This document shows, one piece after another, positions 4,003 through 34,926 of a DNA stretch of 64,000 nucleotides. How positions within the stretch are numbered: position 1 is the first letter of the stretch; every line of letters starts with the position of its first letter. The notes below the pieces were generated by a model that worked only from the letters and a program-made list of their open reading frames with translations, was not told the DNA's origin and did no database searches. Both the position numbers and the translations under genes were made by a program. Source of the stretch: Amoebophrya sp. A120 (lineage: Eukaryota > Protista > Dinoflagellata); contig CAJINV010000008.1 of assembly GCA_905178155.1 (NCBI GenBank), positions 1,240,001 to 1,304,000 on the forward strand, written 5' to 3'.

Positions 4003-6665
4003 ATGACGGATGTCGCACAGCTTTTCGAGGAGTTAGATCGCCTGCGTGACAGCGCACTGGACGGGGCGGCAGGCGGGAAACAGGAGAATACCCGGCTGCT
4101 GGATGTCCTGTTCGAGAAATTCACGGGTAATTTGGACGCCGTCTTGGAATCATGGCACCAGCGCATGGCTGCGCTGGAGAGCCAACTGATGGCGATAAAG
4201 ACGACCAAGGGAAATAATATTGACTCCGAAGTACTACATACCAGACGAGGCGTCTCCCATGAAGACTACGGTCGCAAAAATATCAACAACAATGCTCATG
4301 CTGTGGCTGTCGAAAATAAAAAATATTGCAATCATCGTGATGGGCTTGTTCGTCGCGCTACCACCCGATCCACAGCAGCAGAACAGGCCTCGCAACCGAA
4401 TCAGCACAGTCACCAGACGCAGAACTTTCTGTTTTACGAATCCGCATTTGGAGGGCAACATGAGGGCCAACGACAAGTGCAGGGTCCTTCTAGTACTCTA
4501 GTCGTGCGTCGCGACAGCTCCGAAAATCCGCGAAGCTCCTTCCCACAGCAACCGCCGCGTTTCCGCACACGGTCGACTGGAATCAGTAGGCCTGCTTTTC
4601 ACTTTGCCGCTGCGACAGAAAGCTCGCGCAGCCGCCGGGAAACCATAGCGGAGGAAGTCGCGAAGGTCGCGACAGTGGAGTCCCGTCCTCCTCCAGCACA
4701 GGCACGACCAACAAATAGAATGCTGAAGCCATCGTATTCCTGTCCGGGCCCGCCATCAATAAGTGCCACAGCGAGTAGAATTTCTCCGATTGCCGGGCTT
4801 GGGGATGGTCAACCTCAACACGATCCTGCTCCTGGCTGCTCTAGTGGGGAAATGGGACGACAACCGAAGGAAATCAGGACCTTCGCTGCAGCTACGTATA
4901 ATCGGCCAACGTTTATTTCTGAAGTTTTTCGTCCACCTGCACGTTCCTGGCTTCCGCCCGAGCAGCTGCCCATGAACAATTTTCTGACCGCCAGAATGGA
5001 CCGAGTCCGAGATGACCGCAAAATACTACGGCAAAGAAGCAGGAGCATTCAAGATCGGTGCAAAAATCTGCTGCGGCTAGAGCCACACCTGCAGCATGTT
5101 CATGTACATGGCACTGACAGAGGTAGGGATACGTATGGCGCCGAAACCCTTGGCTGCCTGCCGGCGGAACAACAAGATGTCGAACAACTACGGATAAAGC
5201 ACGAACTCATTTACGCGGAGGAGGTCCGTCAAAAGCGGGAGTACACAAAAAAGATGCGACGGCTTCAAGAAACGTTCTGCTCACCCTCGACGAAAGCGAG
5301 CGGAGCAAGCGGTAGAGGTTCTACTTCCACCTCGTCTTCAACATCGACCGATGCAACCAAGCTCAAAAAAATGCCGCAACCTTTCGCCTTCACCGGGCTA
5401 TCACACAAAACTACACGACACACCAGGAAAAACACAAATTTGCGTTGCAGTTGTTGGTGTCACAAAGACAAAACTAGCCTCTTTTTGGCCTACAGATTTT
5501 CTTGCCACCTCGTTTTTAGTCGCTAACTTGCATCACGAACTGCATTCCGCAGCAGGCCAGCACATCAAGATTGCCGGTCATCTTGTAGTCTCCGCGTCAC
5601 AGAGTGAAGAAGACTTCTGAGACAATTGCAACTACAACTTAATTTCTGGTTGTATGGGTGTCATTTTCCCCATGATACGGGCTGCAGCAATTTGATGCCG
5701 CCTTCGCCCGGCTCCACGAGTCCTTCGGCATCAGAATGGACGCGGTCCGCGCGGCCCTGCACCACGCAAAAACGACGGCCGCCAGCGTGAAGCACGACGA
5801 ACGCAAAGTGCTCCAGAAGATCGACGCTGCGTTGACAAAAGCCGCCGAAATGGCGACGAAGAAGTACCTATCAAATGTAGGAGTGTCTGGGTCTGGAAGA
5901 ATTCATGTCTGTCATGCTTGTCTGGCATGACTCTTAAATCTGTCATGCACGTTACCCAAGAGCTCCGTTTTTCTGTGATGCAGAAGCGCAGTTTGTCATG
6001 CAGAATAGGCAACACCTAGGAGCTCAGAAATTTGTCATGCTGAGCCAGCATTTGTAGCCTCATCATGAGACGCCACCCAGCGTCACAAGTTTCCAGACCC
6101 AGACACTTTTGCTTTTGATAGTACCTGGCTTGCCCGCAGATATACGAGAAAATCCATCTGCGGGAGGAGTTGAAGTATCAACATATGCATTGCAAAAGTA
6201 ACGTACTAGTAAATTAATTGCATTACAAATTTTAGCAAGAACAAAAGTGAAATTTGTAATGCTGTTTTAACTTAGGAGGGAGATTTGTCATGCATATTTG
6301 CAATTAGTACGAGTGCGATACTTTTGCACTTGATACAACTCCAGGCGAAGCAATTCGAGAAGTCCAAGGAAATGTTGAATACAACGACGCGAGGAGGTTC
6401 TACTTCATCTCCAACAAGCAAAAATGATCGGACGTCGATTATGTCGGGCGATTTCTTCTTTGGGAAGAGCCAAAAGTTCCAAGAACAACTGCATCAGGAA
6501 GTAGATCAAGGTGAAGAAGCCGACGCGCATGCCGAAATGCTGACACTGCAAAAACTAGCCCGTGACATACTACATTTCTGCGAAAATACTACGCAGGAAG
6601 TAGGGCGAGCTATCACCTGGGGCGGTCTGCCTTACGTCGAAGTGCTTCTTCTCGAGTACATGTAA
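4003..6665 (+). CDS. Hypothetical coiled-coil/low-complexity protein interrupted by three introners
   Basis: ORFs 4003, 5736 and 6285 join in frame once each TIR element plus 5 nt is removed (TGL|QQFD, KKYL|ACPQ, KYQ|LQAK). Confidence 0.7.
5399..5677. mobile_element. Introner (TIR element), TSD CGGGC
   Basis: cgggc|tatca...tgata|cgggc with degenerate longer inverted repeats; removal restores the frame. Confidence 0.8.
5869..6120 (-). mobile_element. Introner family A (reverse orientation), TSD GTACC
   Basis: About 30-bp TIR tatcaaa.g.a..agtgtctgggtctggaa; interior motifs are reverse-complementary to the 11685 copy. Confidence 0.9.
6184..6335. mobile_element. Introner family C, TSD CAACA/CAACT
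   Basis: TIR tat....tgcaaaagta.cg.act.gta; similar to 28720-28870 in sequence and length. Confidence 0.85.
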
Positions 6666-10152: not shown

Positions 10153-13100
10153 ATGATGAGCCACCTGCTTCTTCTTGTTTTGAATCTTCTTGGTTTATTC
10201 GCAATTTGTTGCGTAGGTGCAGCCACTATCGAACTTCCATCCAACGAGGATTTGCGGCGCGCTGTGGAGCTGCATGGGCAGAAAGTTGCACGTGCTACAA
10301 AATTCTACGACGATCAGATTCGGCGCGTCACTCGGAACGGCCAGAAGCCGCAATTTCTGGACCCCGCAGTGCATCCTAATCTACCGCCAGACTCGCGGTT
10401 TAACGGGGTTTTTCTGTCGCAGGACCTGTACCGAGAACTGTTCAAAGATGCGGACAAGCACGATTTCATCGCAGTCATTGAACTGCTTGCGGCCATGTCC
10501 CGCGGCTATTTTCACGATGTCGCTGAGCTCCAGCGACAAATTTTGGATGCTCCTGCTTCAGCTGAAGGCTCGTCGGAAGTGGTGGCAAAGGCACAAGAAT
10601 CCGCCCCGAGAAGGTACTGGTCTGCTACACGCTGTCAAAGGTCTTCCCTTTTCGCCTTGGCCTATTATCGGCGCCATAATGGAGCCGGGACAACTTCTAC
10701 TTCCACGCGAAAGCAAAAGCCTAGCGAGTCGGTGGAAACTTCTTCAAACCGGACCTCTGACCTGAGGATCGAGCTTAGCAGCAAAAGCTTCGCGTCGTTT
10801 GCTCGACGCTTTAACCATTTTCGTTTTCCACGGCTATTCACCAGGGCGGACAGCGGACGCGGTCACAGGCTGATTACGCAAAAAGCGGCAAAGGAACTGC
10901 GCACAAAAGTACGAAACCGAACGTGAATTGGACTAGCAAGATCGGATAGCGCTCGAAGCAAGATCGGATAGCGCTCGAAGCAGATCAATGATAATGTGCT
11001 CTTGGCTCGTCCGCACACGCGTAGATAAAAACACCATGCGTAATCTTCGTGGTGTATGTGAAGAAGCTCTCTGCAGCTAATTCATGAAAGCAACGGCAAA
11101 GCCGAGTTGTGAACGTCAACGTTTTTCAACCTCGCTGCTACAAACGCTGAGTTATAGGCTCTCATCGACCTTCTTACCAGATCCGTATGGTTTTTCCTGT
11201 GCGTTCGAGCACAGCACATTGATTGACGCAATCAAGGCATTTTTAGCACTAGCACAGCTCTTGAAGGATTCCAATTCACCGGTTGTGGGGCTATATAATA
11301 AACCGCCGTCTCTACTTCGTCCTCGCCGCTGGTTTCGCAAAGACAAGGAGCAACCGGCGTCGCTCGCGATAACAGCAAAACGGAGGACGGTGCTGGTGTC
11401 CCTGGTGAAGATGCGAAGGGCCGCGACGAGGACCCGATTACCTCTGTGCCGGTAGCGACAACCGCGGGAATGGAGAGGTGGCAGTCGCTAGCAAGCCCGA
11501 ACCGACAAGCCGATCCTTGCTCGGAGGCGATCGGTACGGTGCTGCAGGTGACTGAATTTGTGAACGAAAATCGACGCCGGCCTGGAAGCAAGCGCCCGCC
11601 GGAAGATCCCCGGACATTCCAGAGGACCTGTCCTCGTGAGTTTGCGGGTGCTGTAACGCGACTCGCGATCGAGCAAGTCTTCCGTATCAAATGTAAAAAT
11701 GTCTGGGTCTGGAAGAGTGCGCGATTTGTCATGCTGCTTTTCCACGACCTATGAGGTCTGGAATGCCGGACCTAGCATGACAGATTCTGCGAGACCATTC
11801 TAATGCCTATCCTGCATGAGAAACTACCTCCCGACTTGTTCAAAACTGGGCGACTTTTGGCAATCATGCAACACAGATTTTTGCATGCTGCAGATTTAGC
11901 ATGACAAGTTGCAATCTTCCAGACTCAGACATTTTCGCATTTGATATTCCGCACGGTTCAGCGAAATCAGGTTCCCGCTACAGCGATCCGCGGAGTGGAC
12001 AATATCGACGCACTACTGGCGGGTAGACGAAGGGACGAGGAGGACCCCGACCACAACAAAAACGTCGGAAGCAGCATCGACAATGGTGGCGCCGCTAGGG
12101 CAAGCGCTGTTGGTCGTCCCGGCGCTAGGGTCGACCACGCTGTTCACCACGATGATAGCATGGATAACAACAACGCTATTGACCTGGCACAACTGACCCA
12201 GTTTTTGCCGAGGCTTTATCGAAAATTCGTCCCTTCCTTCAATGTTGCAGTAGAGTCAACAAGTACTACGGCAAACTCCATGAGCGCCGAAGATCATCAT
12301 GCCCGGAGGTGCTATGCACACGTGACTGCTCGCTACGTGGTGCAAGTGGCGGCGATACAGCGCTACTACATGTGCTCCAGCTGGGCTCGGAGCGACCGAC
12401 ATCTGCGGGATGAAACGAAGCGCCAGCTGCTTTACGAAGATTTGTACATGGCCGAAAACTGGATTGCGAACGAGAACATGGACAACATGATTCTTTTGAC
12501 AAACCGAAGTATCATGCTCGTGAACTTCAATTCAACGACTTCGGTCCGTGCTCGTTTGTCGCCTGACGCAAGAACGCACACGACGGCTCCCCCTTCTGTT
12601 CACCTCCCGGGTGTGGGCACGGACACCAAAAAACGCAGCGATTCTTTTTCTTGTAGCACCGCTGCAAGTGGTAGTGGTTCTACTAGTTGTCCATCTACTT
12701 CTACTTCTCGCAACATGGATGTGTGGCTTCGCTTCCCGCATGATCGCAACCATCAAAGAGCTGACACCCTGCAGCGCGTGCAACCGCACCAGCGCATCGA
12801 CGCTTTGGGGAGGAGGTTTCGGCAAGCACTAGCGCTAGAGTCACAACAACGTCAGACCACGTTCTCCACGAGTCGTCGTGGTTTCGCAGAGCAGCATCGT
12901 TCCGCCGGGGAGCGCAGAGAGCCTCAAGAACACAACGCCGAAATCAATTCGGAAGTCGAAGCATCATGCTCCTCGTCACAAGTAGTACCGCAGGAAGACA
13001 ATCATCAAGTTGGAAAGCACGCTGGATGGCTGCTGGATGCTACTCAACCACAACCAAAGCCGCGTAATATAGAGCAGCTGCGTCGTGACGGTGACAACGT

Positions 13101-27480: not shown

Positions 27481-30400
27481 ATGTCGTGGTGGTCCCGGTC
27501 AATGATTTTTTGGTGTTTCTTTGTCTTTTCGTCTGTTTGGAAAAACAGCTCGTCGGATTTGGTATCCGCTTGTCGTCCGAATCCAGCGTTGGCCAGCATC
27601 CCGGCCTCGTGGGAAGATCAGAACGCCGAGGTTCCGTTCCGCACGCACGGGGTGGAGGGCACGTTCATCCTGCTCAACCACGGCGCTTCCTTCCTGCGGC
27701 TTCCCCCGCCCAGCGACAGTGGGGTCGCCCTCGCGCCGGAACTGCTGGAGAAGATCGGATATCCGGAGGAACACGGAGTGTGTTATGAAAGCCTCAGTAG
27801 AATGGAAGTTCTCAAAGTGGAAATAATTTGTGATGCATGAAATGCGACACCAAAAAGAGTGTATTGCAGAGGACGCAAAAATGGAGGCCGACTATTGTGC
27901 TTCTACGGGTTCAGAATTGGGCTGCTGATTAGCACGAAAGAAGGGCACACCTTTGCCCTAACTAGCATGACAGACATGTTTTGAGTGCCCGGGAAATTTG
28001 TCATGCGCCGATAAGAAATGGCGCTTCAACTGGAGTCGTTTTTTTGCATTACAAATTATTTCCACTTTGAGGATTTCCATTCTGAGGGTGTCATATGTGT
28101 CTCGCAATACCGGACGTTTTCACACGGGGCAACTTGATTCGCTTGCGGTCGAGTTTGACATCCTCCAGTACACTGCTGGAGCAGAAGCAGATGGAAATTG
28201 CCGGAGGTCCTCCGGTGCTCCAAGCTGATGAAAGCCTCAGTATCAAAATGAAGTAGGTGCAGAAAGAGCAGAAGCCATTTGCTGGCTCTCGCTATGATGT
28301 TCATGTTGGCCGTGTCCTTCTAAAACTAGCATGACTGAGTCCTCTCAGTCAACTATGTTTGCGAAGAGGTGGTCGTTTTATTTCGTACTTGTTCTTAATC
28401 ATCCACATCGGTTGCTATTACTTTACAAACCCAGGCGACGACCCAGTCGTCGGTGAGAACACCGCTTTCCTGCTGGCGCAGAAGGAGCAGGTCGAGAAGC
28501 TTTTGCCCCCGACGGGGCGATACTGCAACAGTTTGGTCACCGATGTGAAGTATTGGAACCCCGAGTTTTTGTCCAAGTTCGAGTTGTGGCAGCGGTGGCA
28601 GGATTTTTTTCAGAACCAGCAGAGCATTCTGCTGATCCTCGGCCCTACCGCCCCCTCTGAGGCGCGCTTGCAGACCGTCTTGCCGCGGAAGGATGCACCC
28701 TTCACGGTCGCGCATTACGTATCCTGTGCAAAAGTATCGCACTAGTATAAATCGCAATACAAATTAGCTCAGCAATACAATATTGAATTTGTAATGCTGA
28801 TTTGCCTTAACAACTAGATTTGTAATGCGTAACTGCAATTAGTACGAGTACGATACTTTTGCAATGCATATTACGTCAACGGGCGCAACCTGGACGAGAT
28901 CCCGGAAGTGGTCGAGGTGGTGCAGATATCAAATGCAAAAATGTCTGGGTCTGGAAGAATGCGGGATTTGTCATGCAGCTTTCCCATGACCTATGAGGTC
29001 TGGAATGCAGGACCTAGCATGACAGATTCTGTGCGATATCTCTCATGCCTATCCTGCATGAGAAACTCCCTCCCGACTTGGTCAAAACTGGACGACCTTT
29101 GGTAATCTCGCAACACAGTTTTTTGCATGCTTCAGATTTAGCATGGGGCGTTAGGCCTCGCTTCAGAGGGGCGTTAGGCCTCGCTGCCGGTGCTGTCGGT
29201 AGCGGATGTCCGCGTCCCTTAGGTGGGTGCTGTCCGGAGTTTGTTTATATCAGCGCTTAGGTGGGTGCTGTGGTGGTTTTCAGCGGGCCGCACCCAAGGA
29301 CTCCATCCACTCGCCCCGCGCAACACAATAGACGTTTTTGGCTGCAGACATGATAAAAGTCCACCTATTTCAAGGGGCCGCACCCCGTTTTTTTATGCTC
29401 GGCCCGTTCCTTGCACACAGTGCGCAGCACCAGGCGGGACCATAGGTGAGCTTCTATCTCTGGCGACATTCATGTGGACATATTAAAGCAACATGATGAC
29501 AACTAAGCTTTCTTTTACAGTTACCGCTGCGCTTTGCAACTACAGCAATCGAGGTAGTGCTGACCTGTTTTTTTTACAAATGAAGCGAAAAGGTCTGACA
29601 TTTCAAAAAAATAAGTAGTTTCATCTTCTCGTCGCCGACATAAGTAATTTGAGGTGCCGCACACCTCTATCTCTAGTCTCTTGTTGATTAGTTATATAGA
29701 CTATAGACTAATACGAACTTGACTCAAAGGCTGTAGAGGAAAGTTCTGAGACCCTTAAACAGCATTAGAAATTGCGGCTCAACCTGGAGCAAACCTGGGG
29801 CAAACCCCTAGGGCTTTTCGAAGTGGTCTTCTTTCCTATTTGCGAATACGCACGGCAGTCGGCCCAAAAGATGGAGGCCGAGCCGTAGGGGACGAGCAAA
29901 AACCACAAAAAGCGCGACACTTTGGAAGTGCTGAACCTGCATGCTATTACGACAAAAGCTGGGACCTTTCTGGGGGTCGGGCTCTAGGGCTTTTCAGATG
30001 TTCGCACACTTTTTTTTCTAAAATGCGCGCTACTGTGAAAATATTTGCGACAAATTCTACGGCTTGGGCTGTAGCGGTTCGGCACGATGAACGACAAAGA
30101 AACCCCTAGGCGCTACAAAAATACCCCGAGCCCTAGACGCAGTGACGCCCCTGCCCCCTCGCTCAGAAGAGAACCGCTTGCCCCCTTCAATATGAAAGTG
30201 CCCCTCGCCCCCCGTGCGGTGCGCCCTGCTCCTGGTGGAACCTCTTGCCCCTGCGTGTTGGCGCCTGCCCCTTAGCCCTGGCAGTATTTCTTACTTACCC
30301 TTTGCGTTAGGTCTTGCCCCCCGCGGTGCATCTTGTCCCCCGCAGTACATCTTGCCTCTCGCAGTACATCTTGCCCCTCGCAGTACATCTTGCCCCTCGC

Positions 30401-33400
30401 AGTGCATCTTGCCCCTCGCAGTACATCTTGCCCCTCGCAATGCACCTTGCCCCTCGCAGTACATCTTGCCCCTCGCAGTGCATCTTGCCCCTCGCAGTGC
30501 ATCTTGCCCCTCGCAGTACATCTTGCCCCCGCGCATACGCCTCGCCCCTGGTAGGACTGCTTGCTGCTTGTCGTGCTAGCGCCCCTTTTCCATCGCAATG
30601 CGTTAGACCTCGCCTCGGCAGGCACATTGCGTTTTCTTTGGGCCGGTCGTTTGTTTCATCCTTTCAAGCAACCGACCGCATGTGGACCAGGGACGGAGCG
30701 CATGAAAGTCTCCCGGGCTCCATCCTCGAGGACTTCTATGCACTAAATATCTACGGACGCTGCAAAATCTACAAGCCTTTGAGTCAGCTCGCCCATGTTT
30801 CTATAGTCCCTCAATTATGAAGAAGTTGCCGCGCCGTTGTGCCAACACGGCGGCGCGAGTGCAGCATACTTTTTACTCGTTCGGTCGCGCATGTGTGGTG
30901 CAGCCCGCTCAGAGTTTTTTGTTTTTCATGCGACTCTGCAGCACTCACGCATAAATTTTTGCATGTTCCAAGTCTGACGACTTTCATGGGCTCACGCACA
31001 TCCGGGATCGGGGGGGTAGGAGGGTGTCTTCAAGCCAAAAAAAAATCCCTTTAGAAGTATAGCGGGAGGCGAAGGACCAGATTTAGCATGACAAGTTGCA
31101 TTCTTCCAGACCCAGACACTTTTACATTTGATAGCAGAACTTCGTCCAGCAGGAGGCTCAGGTAGAAACGGGCAGGCAGCTGTCGTTGATTCTGCTTCTG
31201 GGCACGAGCACGGAGTACGCCACGTCGCTCGGACTGCAGCTCCACTGCATTGCCCCGGTTGTCGACGCGCAGGAACTCCGCATCCTGCCCGAGGACCTGC
31301 AACTGCCCGCAGAACAAACGACTCCCGGCACCGCAGCTGCTCGTAGTACTGGAACAAGCTTGAACTCCACGAGCTCGTCGCTCACGTGGAGATTGCTAAC
31401 ACGGAAGTATCAAGAGGAACCCGAAGGCAGCGGTAACCAGCGCGATGACCTCTCCCGCCCGGAAAACCGTGCGAGTGCAGAGTTCGTTATGAATACAGGA
31501 GCGACGAGTAGCGACCGTGAAAGCCCTTCAGGACCTCCCGGCTTAAAAACTTCGCCAAGCGCTGCAGCAGAAGCAGTTCCTCAGCACACAGACGACGCAA
31601 TTACGACAGAGCTGCGGCCGTGGCTCCTTGGTCGATCTGACCTCCCGCCGCGAAGTATCAAAGTGAAAAAAGCCCCCACCCCATATCGGAAACGGAAGAT
31701 GCGCGAATTTGTGATGCTGTGTTTGAGTACACAAATCGACTTGCATTGGTAGAAGTCCAAGAGACGAAGCTGCGGCCTAAATTGCAGGGAATGTGTCATG
31801 CTGTTTCCCACTTCCAGTTGCCTCCTGTCATCCTGGAGCTGGAAGGCTTTCCCACGCTAGGCAGCACTACAGTTCGCATCCTTTGCCTTGTAGCATCACA
31901 AAGCTGATTTGTGACAACAAATCTGCATCACAGATTTCCGTTTTGATATGGGGAGGGGGCATGTCTCATTGTAATACGAAGAGTTGACCTGAACGGACCG
32001 GATTGGGAATTTTTCGTAGCGCCGACGGCCGTCGGTGGGGGCCCACTTGCAGATATTGGCGAAAATATCGAAAACCCGATGATGTCACCCGTATACGTGG
32101 GTAACATCACGGTGCCTTTCGCCCCCCAATCCGTCTTGAGTGGATTGCAAATGAAGATCTCCAGTACGGAGAGGGTGTTCTACAAGAAATCCGGGATCAA
32201 ATTGATCGGAAAAGAAGAAACAGCATCTGTAGCTGCATCAATATCTGACGACCCAACGGCAGCCGGGAATACTAGCGAGGCACTTCTGGAAAATTTCGAG
32301 TACCTGCTGACCATAGACGCCTGTGACTGGAGTTGCGATGTTTTTTTGAACGGTGAGCCGCTTGTCGCCCATCAAGGAGGGTACGACCGATTTCAGGTAA
32401 AGATTCCGGAAAAGTGGATTTTGCCTTCCTCGCAAAGCCAGTCCACTAGCTCCTTCGAGCTGCTGATTACAAGTTGGGATCCAACCGATAAGGGATGCGA
32501 GTTCGTGCAGTCTCCCCCGGTTCCCTGCATTAAGTGCTGCGCGGTGGCAACTCAGCCACGCGGGAAGCAGGTACTACATCAAATCACACTTTGCACTAAT
32601 AAAAAAAAGGAAGATCCAAACAAACCAAACGCATATAGTTAGACGCAAAGGAGGACTCTTAAAGGATCTGCGAAGAGTGATCGTGAAGTCAAGGCTCGAA
32701 GAGTTGTTCATGGCTTCGCTTCTCTCGCATAATTCCGAAAAAATCGCCATTTACGATTACGTATACTCACACTATCCACCACGACCAGGCGCTCGAACCT
32801 GGCTTCATCATGTATAGTCCGGTGACTGGGCTCTGGCGGGACGGCATCTGGGCGGAGTTGGTGCCGAAGTGCCGACTGCAAGTATCCAGGAAAAAACACC
32901 CATCCCCATCCAATTTGTATTTGTCATGCAAAACATGCATAAAATCTACTATTTGTCATGCAAAAAATGGATGGGGATGGGTGTTTTTTCCTGGATAGCA
33001 AGACTGGTCTTGGCATTACGACGCGTACGAGAAGAAGCTCACACTGTTTGGGTTCGAGCTGACCGAATCCTGTCACAAGATGGCGGCGGAGGACGTTTCG
33101 AGATTGAGTCTGAGGGCAGACCTCACATCGTTGACAAGAACCACAACTGGAAGCCCGTTGGGAGCCGCATCTTCTACTTCGCCGACAATCCTCACCTCCA
33201 CCATCCGACTTGCTCGGCATCCCCGCCAGGATCTCGCAGTCGATTTCAGCTTTCAGCAAAACAAAATTGTCTTGGACATAGCCACCAAAGTCGACTCCTT
33301 TCCAGAGTGGAGCGTCGCGTCGCCGAACTTGCACAACCTGACACTGACGGTTTCGTTGACATCCACAACTGGAGTACTAGAGGCCCAGCGCCAGCAGCAG

Positions 33401-34926
33401 GATATGGATAGCCAGTCCTACAAGGTTGGGTTACGACAAATCGAGATTCAGAAGAACCAGTTGTACCTGAATGGGGAGCTGCTGTTCATTCACGGAGTGC
33501 TCCACCAGGGCTACTGGCCGGAGTCTTTACTGACGTCCCCGTCGACGGAGGCGACCTACCAGGAGGTGCGGGCCATGAAGGAGGCGGGGTTCAATCTGGT
33601 GCGCGTCCACATGATCGTCTTCAATCAGGCCTTCTACGCCGCCTGCGACTACTATGGGTTGTTGGTCATGCAGGACATGCCCTCCGGCGATGGCCGCGTG
33701 ATTCCGGCCTGGGACCTGCACCGGCGGAACTCCCAGCCCGATATGGACAACAACGCCGGGTTTGACGAAATTGTCCGCAGCCCGGAGTCGTACCAGAATT
33801 TCTTGACGGAGCTGAAGCAGATGATTCTCAGCCTGAAAAAGTTCTCCTCGGTCATCATCTGGACGCTGTTCAACGAGGGCTGGGGCCAGGCCAACACGGC
33901 GGAGACCGTGCAAGCGGCGCGCTTCTGGGACCCCACGCGGCTCGTGGACGCGGTTTCGGGCTGGAACGACCCGCTGCTGTTCGGGGAACCGCACTACGCA
34001 TTGCAAATATGTCTGGGTCTGGGAGTATGCGAACTTGTGATGCATGTTGCGGACGATCATCCAAAAATCTGTGTTGCGTGACTTGCAAAAGGTGCCCACT
34101 TCTGGCCATGCTGAGAGGGCATTTCTCATGCAGAAGAGGCATCACCAAGGGGCTGCAGATCCTGCGATGCTGGGCCCTGCATTCCAGACTTGGCGGAGTT
34201 TGGAAAAACTCCATGACGAATGTCGCAATCTTCCAGACCCAGACACATTTGCGATCCATACGCACCCAGTGATCCAGTTCGAAGAGTACAAGGAGTCGCA
34301 GGAGCGCACGCAGTTCAATTTCGACATCGGCGACTTCTTCGACGTGCACAACTATGAGGGCAGCCCCTTCCAGAACCTGTCCAAAACCTTCGACGTCTAC
34401 CCGTTTCCGCTGGCAAACCGGGTGATTCTGGTGGGCGAGTACGGGGGTATCGGGTTATCCAGGAAAAAACACCCATCCCCATCCAATTTGTCATGCAAAA
34501 CATGCATAGTTTGCGAATATTTGTCATGCAAGAAATGAATCGGGATGGGTGTTTTTTTCTGGATACGGGTACAGCAAGGGGGAGAAGCACGACTACGACC
34601 CCGATGCCAGCTGGGGCTACGGGAACGTGCGCCACAGCGCCGCCGGCTTTTTCGAGGCGGTGGAAGCGGTGTTGGACCGCCTCAAAATACTTGCTTGTCG
34701 CGAAGAGTACAACGTCGTCGGGGGCGTGTATACGCAGTGGACGGACGTGGAAACGGAGATCAATGGCCTAGTGACGTACGACCGCGTACCGAAACTCTCG
34801 CTACGACGGGAAATGAAACTCCTGTCTGACAAACTCCTCCGCGCGTATTATGACTGTAAGAAGCCCAGGTGGTCTTTTGCTGACAAAAGAAAACGCGAGC
34901 AAGAAAAATTAGAAATGTACGAATAA
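27481..34926 (+). CDS. Glycoside hydrolase family 2 (beta-galactosidase/glucuronidase-like) with signal peptide and N-terminal extension; 7 introners and 2 GT-AG introns
   Basis: Reconstructed motifs DLNGPDWEF, HQGGY, QPRGKQ, GVLHQGYWP, GFNLVRVH, WTLFNEGWGQ, DPTRLVDAVSGW, GEYGGIG, SWGYG and YTQWTDVETEINGLVTYDR; canonical introns 28240-28434 and 32571-32788. Confidence 0.85.
27784..28095. mobile_element. Introner, TSD TGTGT
   Basis: About 50-bp TIR including ctcaaagtggaaataatttgt(g/a)atgca; removal opens an exon at 28101-28239. Confidence 0.9.
28720..28870. mobile_element. Introner family C, TSD TTACG
   Basis: TIR tgcaaaagtatcg; removal gives AHYV|NGRNL. Confidence 0.9.
29146..31077. mobile_element. 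Non-coding nested insertion with 13-bp TSD CAGATTTAGCATG
   Basis: CAGATTTAGCATG occurs at 29133-29145 and 31078-31090 but only once in the empty 11685 copy; no clear TIR or long ORF. Confidence 0.85.
30312..30534. repeat. 19-bp minisatellite (CAGTRCATCTTGCCCCTCG), about 11-12 copies
   Basis: Contiguous near-identical units without spacers. Confidence 0.95.
31656..31976. mobile_element. Introner, TSD CGAAG
   Basis: TIR ...gccccc.ccccatatc..aaacggaa; removal restores PRR|VDLNGPDWEF. Confidence 0.9.
32883..32997. mobile_element. Introner family B, TSD GCAAG
   Basis: Perfect 30-bp TIR tatccaggaaaaaacacccatccccatcca. Confidence 0.97.
33995..34260 (-). mobile_element. Introner family A (reverse orientation), TSD CGCAC
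   Basis: TIR with tgtctgggtctgg; interior gctgggccctgcattccagac and tttctcatgcagaagaggcat are reverse complements of family A interior motifs. Confidence 0.92.
34456..34565. mobile_element. Introner family B, TSD CGGGT
   Basis: TIR tatccag.aaaaaacacccatccc; removal gives GEYGGIG|YSKG. Confidence 0.95.

Follow-up and report, generated by a model that had tools for sequence, protein, structure and literature searches.

An insertion with a 13-bp target duplication, very probably composed of two nested mobile elements, in an introner of a GH2 gene of Amoebophrya sp. A120

Introduction

The dinoflagellate Amoebophrya sp. A120 carries repeated introns, or introners, which make up 17% of its assembly. 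Their terminal inverted repeats (TIRs) start with TAT, continue with seven bases and then with a run of A, and a short direct repeat accompanies them (Farhat et al., 2021; PMC7789003). We analyzed a 64,000-nucleotide stretch of this genome (assembly GCA_905178155.1, contig CAJINV010000008.1, positions 1,240,001 to 1,304,000 of the forward strand), hereafter called the window; all positions below are those of the window. A gene for a GH2 glycoside hydrolase in the window is interrupted by an introner whose length has grown to 2,207 bp, from about 262 bp, through an insertion with a 13-bp target site duplication (TSD). The original prediction for this locus was of a single 1.9-kb element brought in by target-primed retrotransposition, possibly a parasite that uses introners as safe harbors. 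In this study, we describe the host introner, the insert, and the relatives of the insert in public sequence runs, and we weigh the ways in which the insert may have arrived.

Materials and methods

Relatives of the insert were read from contigs of two public runs, X1 (115 contigs) and X9 (an estuary metagenome, 4 contigs), aligned to positions 29123-31100. In this alignment, 23 bp of host flank was kept on each side, and the count of contigs that enter this flank covers the present introner family and the listed rows. Single-copy depth was about 45. Summed contig depth is not equal to copy number; diverged contigs lying beside exact contigs of single depth were taken as firmer evidence for relatives than depth sums. 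The missing contig cover at 31037-31100 was not used as junction evidence. A crude window scan for TIRs with TSDs gave seven matches; some of these were spurious, and introner cover was not estimated from the scan.

Results

The host element (28927-31133) is a TIR introner resembling a miniature inverted-repeat transposable element, with TAT...ATA ends, and is an intron in the deposited gene model. Its TIRs, about 50 bp long, lie at 28927-28976 (plus strand) and 31085-31133 (minus strand, intact), and the left end reads TATCAAATGCAAAA at 28927. The 5-bp TSD of the host, GCAGA, is present on the plus strand at 28922-28926 and 31134-31138; these limits correct those first proposed. The TIR begins with TAT and ends in three or more A, and GCAGA (at 28922 and 31134) supplies the direct repeat of 3-5 nt found at the exon/intron borders of A120 introners. 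In its TIR, its 5-bp repeat, and its being a non-canonical intron, the host is like the A120 introner elements of Farhat et al. (2021; PMC7789003); it differs in its length of 2.2 kb, owing to the nested insert, whereas only introns of 40-1000 bp were taken in that study. TA/TA ends with a 5-bp TSD were noted for A120 family 38 by Gozashti et al. (2025; PMC12130899). Self-comparison of the window revealed siblings of the host at 5869-6120, 34002-34252, and 11685-11946. The last of these (262 bp, TSD TTCCG) is empty and served as the pre-insertion reference. Six CATG cores lie within the 262-bp host.

The exons on either side are on the plus strand, at 28876-28926 upstream and 31139-31655 downstream. 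Among 3,600 candidates, one protein matched the downstream exon, namely P0001, a deposited protein that its sources name as one of Amoebophrya sp. A120. P0001 is 100% identical to the exon after the host element and carries PF02836; its residues 10-28 match 28869-28925 on the upstream side. The downstream exon is also covered by record 16 of run X3.

Three copies of the 13-mer CAGATTTAGCATG lie in the window, at 11891 in the empty sibling and at 29133 and 31078 in the host. In the alignment of the sibling at 11685-11946 with the host, the match is 89.5% over 28927-29145 and 91.1% over 31078-31133. Because the sibling alignments end there, the insert is placed at 29146-31077 (1,932 bp), exactly between the 13-mer copies. 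These positions and the alignment confirm the predicted insertion relative to the empty copy at 11685: the insertion is real, and the 13-bp duplication is exact. Both copies of the duplication are on the plus strand. The left copy (29133-29145) can fold with the preceding bases into a CATGCT/AGCATG hairpin, and the right copy (31078-31090) overlaps the inner edge of the right TIR. The duplication overlaps the conserved motif, as had been proposed, but the motif is not broken, since GCATGACAA stays whole at 31086 in the right copy. The left junction is bridged by one X1 contig (29067-29290, depth 44, one difference).

As had been noted earlier, the insert has neither a long open reading frame nor a clear TIR. 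Its longest stop-to-stop frame (169 aa) passes through a minisatellite, none of the five insert frames scanned had a Pfam match, and comparison of the ends of the whole 1,932-bp insert revealed no TIR. Rfam and tRNA (ARAGORN) searches of the insert gave no match, and a second copy of any part of it was not found in a self-search of the window. The four paired repeats (29145/29168, 29218/29256, 29278/29368, and 29808/29984) and the 19-bp minisatellite of the original prediction are all present. Two other readings of short repeats were considered. A degenerate repeat of 9-10 bp at 29215 and 31046 may be an older TSD but was not above chance in the end comparison; a tyrosine-recombinase core-site reading of the 13-mer was dropped, a second copy with the same duplication not having been seen.

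The insert is very probably a composite of two elements, one inside the other, and not a single 1.9-kb element as first thought. Contigs contain a form that lacks 29689-30866. One joint connects 29688 to 30867 (depth 100, two contigs), and another connects 29690 to 30876 with seven letters between (depth 295 in X1; present in X9 as well); both represent one empty site, with a combined depth of about 9 times single-copy depth. A further diverged contig of the empty type appears as a loose end before 30882. At the inner boundaries, X9 record 11 begins at 29688 with an unrelated flank, and contigs of both X1 and X9 depart from the window at 30859-30861 into unrelated flanks. An inverted repeat and a hairpin inside these boundaries, described below, had been missed earlier. 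Both parts of the insert have diverged relatives elsewhere, and the insert is accordingly not single-copy, in keeping with the original prediction. The relatives show 24 differences in 278 positions, 15 in 340, and 31 in 205, and stand beside exact contigs of the present locus at single depth (29358-29678, depth 46, 0 differences). X9 record 9 is identical over 151 bases (29551-29699), reaching 11 bases past the outer/inner junction, which is too few for bridging; the same nested state may exist in the wild.

The inner element (29689-30866, plus strand; 1,178 bp) has the appearance of a non-autonomous element of the HLE2 (Helitron2/Helentron) kind. It begins with T and lies between T and T before TACT; the joints in X1 and X9 and the empty paralogous site indicate a T|T target with no clear duplication. 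It contains a subterminal inverted repeat of 41 bp, imperfect, whose 5' arm (29699-29737, plus strand) and 3' arm (30768-30808, minus strand) share exact blocks of 9 bp (29699-29707 and 30800-30808) and 13 bp (29720-29732 and 30774-30786). The score of this repeat, 34, was reached by 0 of 2000 dinucleotide shuffles, and a comparison of 1,849 segment pairs of the insert revealed no other region that equaled it. A GC-rich hairpin at 30830-30857 (plus strand; 12-bp stem with two G-T pairs, 4-nt loop) lies 9 nt before the element end. It is the strongest 36-nt window of the insert (z score -3.46; 0 of 200 shuffles) and is common to contigs with other flanks, which have loose ends at 30829, 30859, and 30861. 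TACT stands 7 nt after 30859 in all three right flanks seen (the window, the X1 loose end of two contigs, and the X9 loose end), and because the empty site reads TACT as well, it is an apparent target preference. A weak hairpin at the 5' end (29687-29712, plus strand; z score -2.07) takes in the 9-bp block, which is a Helitron2 trait, yet 8 of 200 shuffles fold as well. The 19-bp minisatellite, with 11.5 copies, occupies the middle of the element (30312-30529, plus strand). The bin at 30829-30861 has the highest cover of the insert, at about 38 times single-copy depth. Two alternatives for the inner element were rejected. As a cut-and-paste TIR (29720-30786), the 13-bp inverted repeat has no TSD, and the true boundaries lie outside it; an ISDra2-like TTGAT target to the left of the element is not shared, as the other copy has a different flank.

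Subterminal repeats, a 3' hairpin, a T|T site, and a tandem repeat are described as traits of HINE/DINE-1 (PMC4067079), Helitron2 (PMC3627910), and HLE2 (PMC11417382) elements; among dinoflagellates, Symbiodinium microadriaticum is known to have a Helitron2-like RepHel (PMC8788227). The inner element is like these elements in its subterminal repeats, 3' stem-loop, 5' T, T|T target, lack of a clear TSD, central tandem repeat, and lack of coding capacity, and may be like them in its weak 5' hairpin. Its 13-bp exact block is within the 11-18 bp published for HLE2/HINE subterminal inverted repeats, and its stem-loop, at 9 nt, is within the 8-35 nt from the 3' end. The spacing of the arms departs from the published one, in which the 3' repeat is 20-60 nt from the 3' end (here 58 or 80 nt) and the 5' repeat is within 0-4 nt of the 5' end (here 10 or 31 nt).

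The outer element, to which the 13-bp TSD belongs, is a TIR-less repeat of 754 bp. Its left part (29146-29688; 543 bp) holds paired repeats of 18, 16, and 11 bp and is represented by diverged contigs. Its right part (30867-31036) is the deepest-covered outer segment, at about 16 times single-copy depth. The right part is followed on the plus strand by a run of nine A (31037-31045) and 32 further bases before the TSD, and this stretch of 31037-31077 has almost no contig cover (mean depth 14.9). In multiples of single-copy depth, cover of the outer element is 1.7-2 over the first 130 bp, 2-19 in the middle, about 16 at 30905-31036, and 0.3 from the 9-A run onward. A 23-bp unit is present twice at the left end. 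Inverted and direct repeats between the ends of the outer element are at the level of shuffles (653 and 737 of 1000 shuffles score as well), and no hairpin was found at the right end (z scores +0.73 and -0.19). On the minus strand near 31037, the possibility of a relict spliced leader of the dinoflagellate kind was rejected: the likeness extends over eight bases only, and there is no poly(A) at the other end. A 14-mer of the outer 5' end recurs at 30600 (13/14) and 30304 (12/14), which is too weak, as 9 of 300 shuffles match it.

The outer element was compared with three kinds of known elements. Like derivatives of retrotransposons without long terminal repeats (non-LTR retrotransposons) (SINE-like elements and truncated LINE 3' ends; short and long interspersed elements, respectively), it has a long TSD (13 bp) with no TIR or LTR, a bias in cover toward one end, and an A-run; unlike them, it has its A-run away from the TSD, with no poly(A) or tandem tail against the duplication, and carries no tRNA, 5S, or 7SL head and no reverse transcriptase (RT) frame. 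Non-LTR retrotransposons have been reported in Amoebophrya (PMC7789003). Penelope-like insertions often carry a tail of 30-40 bp at one end (PMC8557442), which 31046-31077 resembles; pseudo-LTRs or terminal direct repeats are absent from the outer element, as is a hammerhead (no Rfam match). The third kind comprises the Helitron2 elements CRe-1/2/3 (PMC3627910) and Replitron-1 (PMC10288648) of Chlamydomonas reinhardtii, which give variable TSDs. The outer element shares with them a long TSD with no TIR, extra terminal sequence, and one over-represented end; it differs in the absence of a terminal hairpin or asymmetric terminal inverted repeat, a terminal direct repeat, and a TTTT or RG target. 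Its end repeats are at chance level, and its left end follows TG, which does not agree with a Replitron.

In the gene, P0001 reads EVVEVVQNFVQQ across the element, joining 28925 to 31135, and the A120 genome annotation was based on transcriptomes (PMC7789003). X3 record 16, a contig of 2,861 nt, aligns with 31134-31655 and ends at both introner borders; its 54 leftover upstream letters depart from the genome rather than enter the TIR. In the predicted fold of a 2,227-nt stretch, 46 of the 50 left-TIR positions pair with the right TIR, with a mean probability of 0.91. The right TIR arm was rebuilt whole, because the duplication overlaps its inner edge. The exon join in P0001, X3 record 16, and the TIR pairing bear out the earlier proposal that the host TIRs apparently still define an intron of 2.2 kb, and we are highly confident that it is still spliced.

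Only one of the 115 X1 contigs ran into introner flank, and that contig represents the left junction of the present locus itself (29067-29290, depth 44). The terminal bins have 1.7 (left) and 0.3 (right) times single-copy depth, against 16-19 times in the inner bins of the outer element; because the terminal bins are shallow, the relatives appear not to be at this site in this introner family. A random 13-bp window would, by arithmetic, overlap a CATG core in about a third of positions, and with six such cores in a 262-bp host, it is no surprise that the duplication overlaps the motif. Landing in an introner had a high prior probability, because introners occupy 17% of the assembly and insertions into exons are purged. 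Several large A120 introner families with units of 250-310 bp have model end coordinates of 4-14 kb, and those families match Gypsy, Copia, DIRS, or LINE peptides (38 of 58 A120 rows; PMC12130899); long nested insertions thus appear to be common in A120 introners. For this site and introner family, the idea of a parasite directed to introners or to the GCATGACAA motif is therefore not upheld, and we consider it likely that the element is not specifically aimed at introners.

The GH2 gene region (27784-34565) is rich in introners of several families, at 27784-28095, 28720-28870, 28927-31133, from 31656, 32883-32997, 34002-34252, and 34456-34565. Two neighboring introns have nearly identical first 16 bases (27785-27800 and 28227-28242); the intron at 28227 has no right TIR that obviously matches and may have been truncated or rearranged. 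The start of P0001 is at 28693, in a frame that differs from the upstream stop-free frame. When the introner at 28720-28870 is excised together with one TTACG copy, the frame is free of stops from 28435 onward into the exons downstream, and X3 record 9, an RNA-like contig, covers 28435-28720 plus 449 further upstream letters. Because of this frame and this contig, the GH2 gene model looks truncated at its N-terminus. Counting both strands, GCATGAC occurs 22 times and GCATGACAA 15 times in the window, many inside different introner families; they are likely a shared transposase-binding or splicing motif. In the raw RNA run X10, which bears the same species label, 200 reads matched the host introner only, at 90-95% likeness, and none matched the exons; these introner copies are in another flank, with both strands about equally represented. 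A diverged strain thus shares the host introner family, and these reads say nothing about the present locus.

In wider searches, neither the three viral scans nor the scan of prokaryote genomes gave a match, an autonomous RepHel partner of the inner element was not found in the public collections probed, and a metagenome match to a 20-mer (L001) was put down to chance, only those 20 bases being alike. No description of HLE2-like elements in Amoebophrya was found in the literature searched, outside which many subscription papers lie. The Helitron rows on dinoflagellates in that literature name species other than Amoebophrya, and the HELIANO text and supplement and the supplement text of Farhat et al., figure S4 aside, hold no report of HLE2 for Amoebophrya. 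Likewise, no report of introner-targeting elements was found in the literature searched, and none of the 20 records listed, of 222, was a relevant report of nested insertions in introners.

Discussion

The findings are best accommodated by two insertions within one introner. Target-primed reverse transcription at a staggered cut likely brought in the outer 754-bp repeat and would have left the 13-bp duplication. The inner 1,178 bp was likely pasted in at a T|T site by a rolling-circle transposase of the Helitron2/Helentron type, and may have entered either before or after the outer repeat reached this site. The landing in an introner was probably unaimed. In the pre-mRNA, both TIRs would still pair, and the 2.2 kb would leave with one copy of the 5-bp TSD, keeping the reading frame open. 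In restoring the inner edge of the right TIR, the duplication likely allowed the locus to survive. The enzymes that moved each part and the order of events are inferred. We lean toward this account as a whole, in which the outer part was retrotransposed, the inner part is of the Helitron2/Helentron type, neither was targeted, and the intron is still spliced. Taken by themselves, the inner element is probably of the HUH/HLE2 type, and retrotransposition of the outer element, which ranks first among the mechanisms compared, is held tentatively. Because of the long TSD, the one over-represented end, and the A-run, 5'-truncated poly(A) retrocopies fit the outer part. Target-primed retrotransposition, as originally predicted, is thus plausible for the outer 754 bp but not for the whole 1.9 kb, and a long TSD with no TIR is not unique to it. 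Both parts are probably undescribed families of known kinds, and a wider family of HLE2-like elements that insert before TACT is likely.

Several observations weigh against this account. For the inner element, the cut site can slide by two bases, with TA on both sides, as a microhomology deletion would give. It is unlike HLE2 in being flanked by single Ts and not T runs, in a 5' arm whose 9-bp and 13-bp blocks lie 10 and 31 nt inside the element, respectively, against a published 0-4 nt, in its bipartite 9 + 13-bp repeat, and in its apparent TACT preference, which recalls the insertion of IS91 5' of a tetranucleotide. Because the 5'-arm spacing does not follow the published rule and no RepHel partner was seen, the inner element is not filed as a proven HLE2 member. 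For the outer element, depth is not monotonic along its length (2.3 to 19 times single-copy depth), the 32 bases between the A-run and the TSD would be foreign to a simple poly(A) retrocopy, the ARAGORN, Rfam, and Pfam searches of the insert revealed neither an RT frame nor a tRNA or other RNA head, and 3'-biased copy number with TSDs of 7-19 bp is described for Helitron2 families too (PMC3627910). As for the contigs, the rows listed for the alignment give 9 of 38 loose ends and 13 of 131 pieces, so that most flanks of the relatives are unseen, and X1 may be the data behind the assembly and hence not independent. On splicing, X3 is only guessed to be RNA, and the spliced joint is not among the 15 of 309 joints listed, which makes the contig evidence indirect.

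Among the alternatives, the one that survives best is that the outer 754-bp element is itself an HUH element with variable TSDs, with 31037-31077 as parental flank, as in CRe-1/2/3 and Replitron-1. The 13-bp TSD is within the range of 7-19 bp, one end is over-represented, an extension of 41 bp with low cover lies between the repeated core and the TSD, and an HLE2-like element, the inner part, is present in the same genome. However, the outer element has no right-end hairpin, subterminal inverted repeat, or terminal direct repeat, and its target is not preceded by TTTT or RG. Moreover, such TSDs are called peculiar to C. reinhardtii, and Replitron proteins are stated to be undetected in alveolates (PMC10288648). 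We regard this origin as unlikely.

The insert could also be a repair patch: after a staggered break close to the TIR, made, for example, when the introner transposase aborted a cut, a stretch of another locus that happened to carry these repeats would have been copied in, and what the TSD bounds would be no transposon. Low cover at both ends of the insert, beside a repeated core, means that the TSD bounds a longer unit than the repeated one, as a patch would have it, and the break coincides with the TIR's inner edge. A near-identical donor, however, was not seen: the next relative differs at 24 of 278 positions, against the exact contig of the locus at 29358-29678, and a second contig covers most of the left end. 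A patch is accordingly rather improbable.

The chance is slim that the insert is one 1.9-kb element whose 754-bp form arose by internal deletion through the 2-bp TA microhomology. Besides the sliding joint, other internal deletions are common among the relatives, with joints from 29858 to 29940, from 29858 to 30009, and from 30075 to 30228. Against this stand the unrelated flanks at both inner boundaries (X9 at 29688; X1 and X9 at 30859-30861) and the positions of the inverted repeat and hairpin, which are at those boundaries and not at the 1.9-kb ends.

Equally doubtful is the reading of the element as a parasite specialized in introners, which would serve it as safe harbors and would be entered at the GCATG(ACAA) motif. 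The sole target seen is an introner, and the cut coincides with the inner edge of the TIR, where splicing is spared, and with the 3' foot of a small hairpin. Bin arithmetic allows a second left-end copy that starts about five bases into the TSD, although an extra 23-bp repeat unit fits equally. The low number of contigs in the 23-bp flanks (1 of 115), the shallow terminal bins, the share of introners in the assembly, and the six CATG cores of the host argue otherwise, and survival bias accounts for the harmless position. In its most elaborate form, which we likewise judge improbable, the outer repeat would be a TIR-less family, not yet described, with the GCATG-bearing inner edge of introner TIRs as its insertion site, reached, for example, via nicks made by the introners' own transposase, the 13-bp duplication rebuilding the splicing hairpin each time; it would be a hyperparasite of non-canonical introns, with a Helitron2-like passenger and IS91-like tetranucleotide targeting.

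An assembly artefact is hardly credible: no contig among those listed bridges the right junction, which by itself tells for neither view, but the left junction is bridged at single-copy depth, the 13-bp duplication is exact, and the TSD, TIRs, and reading frame of the host are all consistent.

The preferred account, of an outer retrocopy with an HLE2-type element inside it, is of modest significance. Because introners fill 17% of the genome, nested insertion in them is expected, and the system would be surprising only if it were true that the outer element targets the edges of introner TIRs. The locus is a natural test of how the non-canonical introns of Amoebophrya are recognized: an interior eight-fold longer, with intact TIRs, is apparently still removed precisely, which fits end-pairing as the signal. 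It also points to HLE2-like rolling-circle elements in Amoebophrya.

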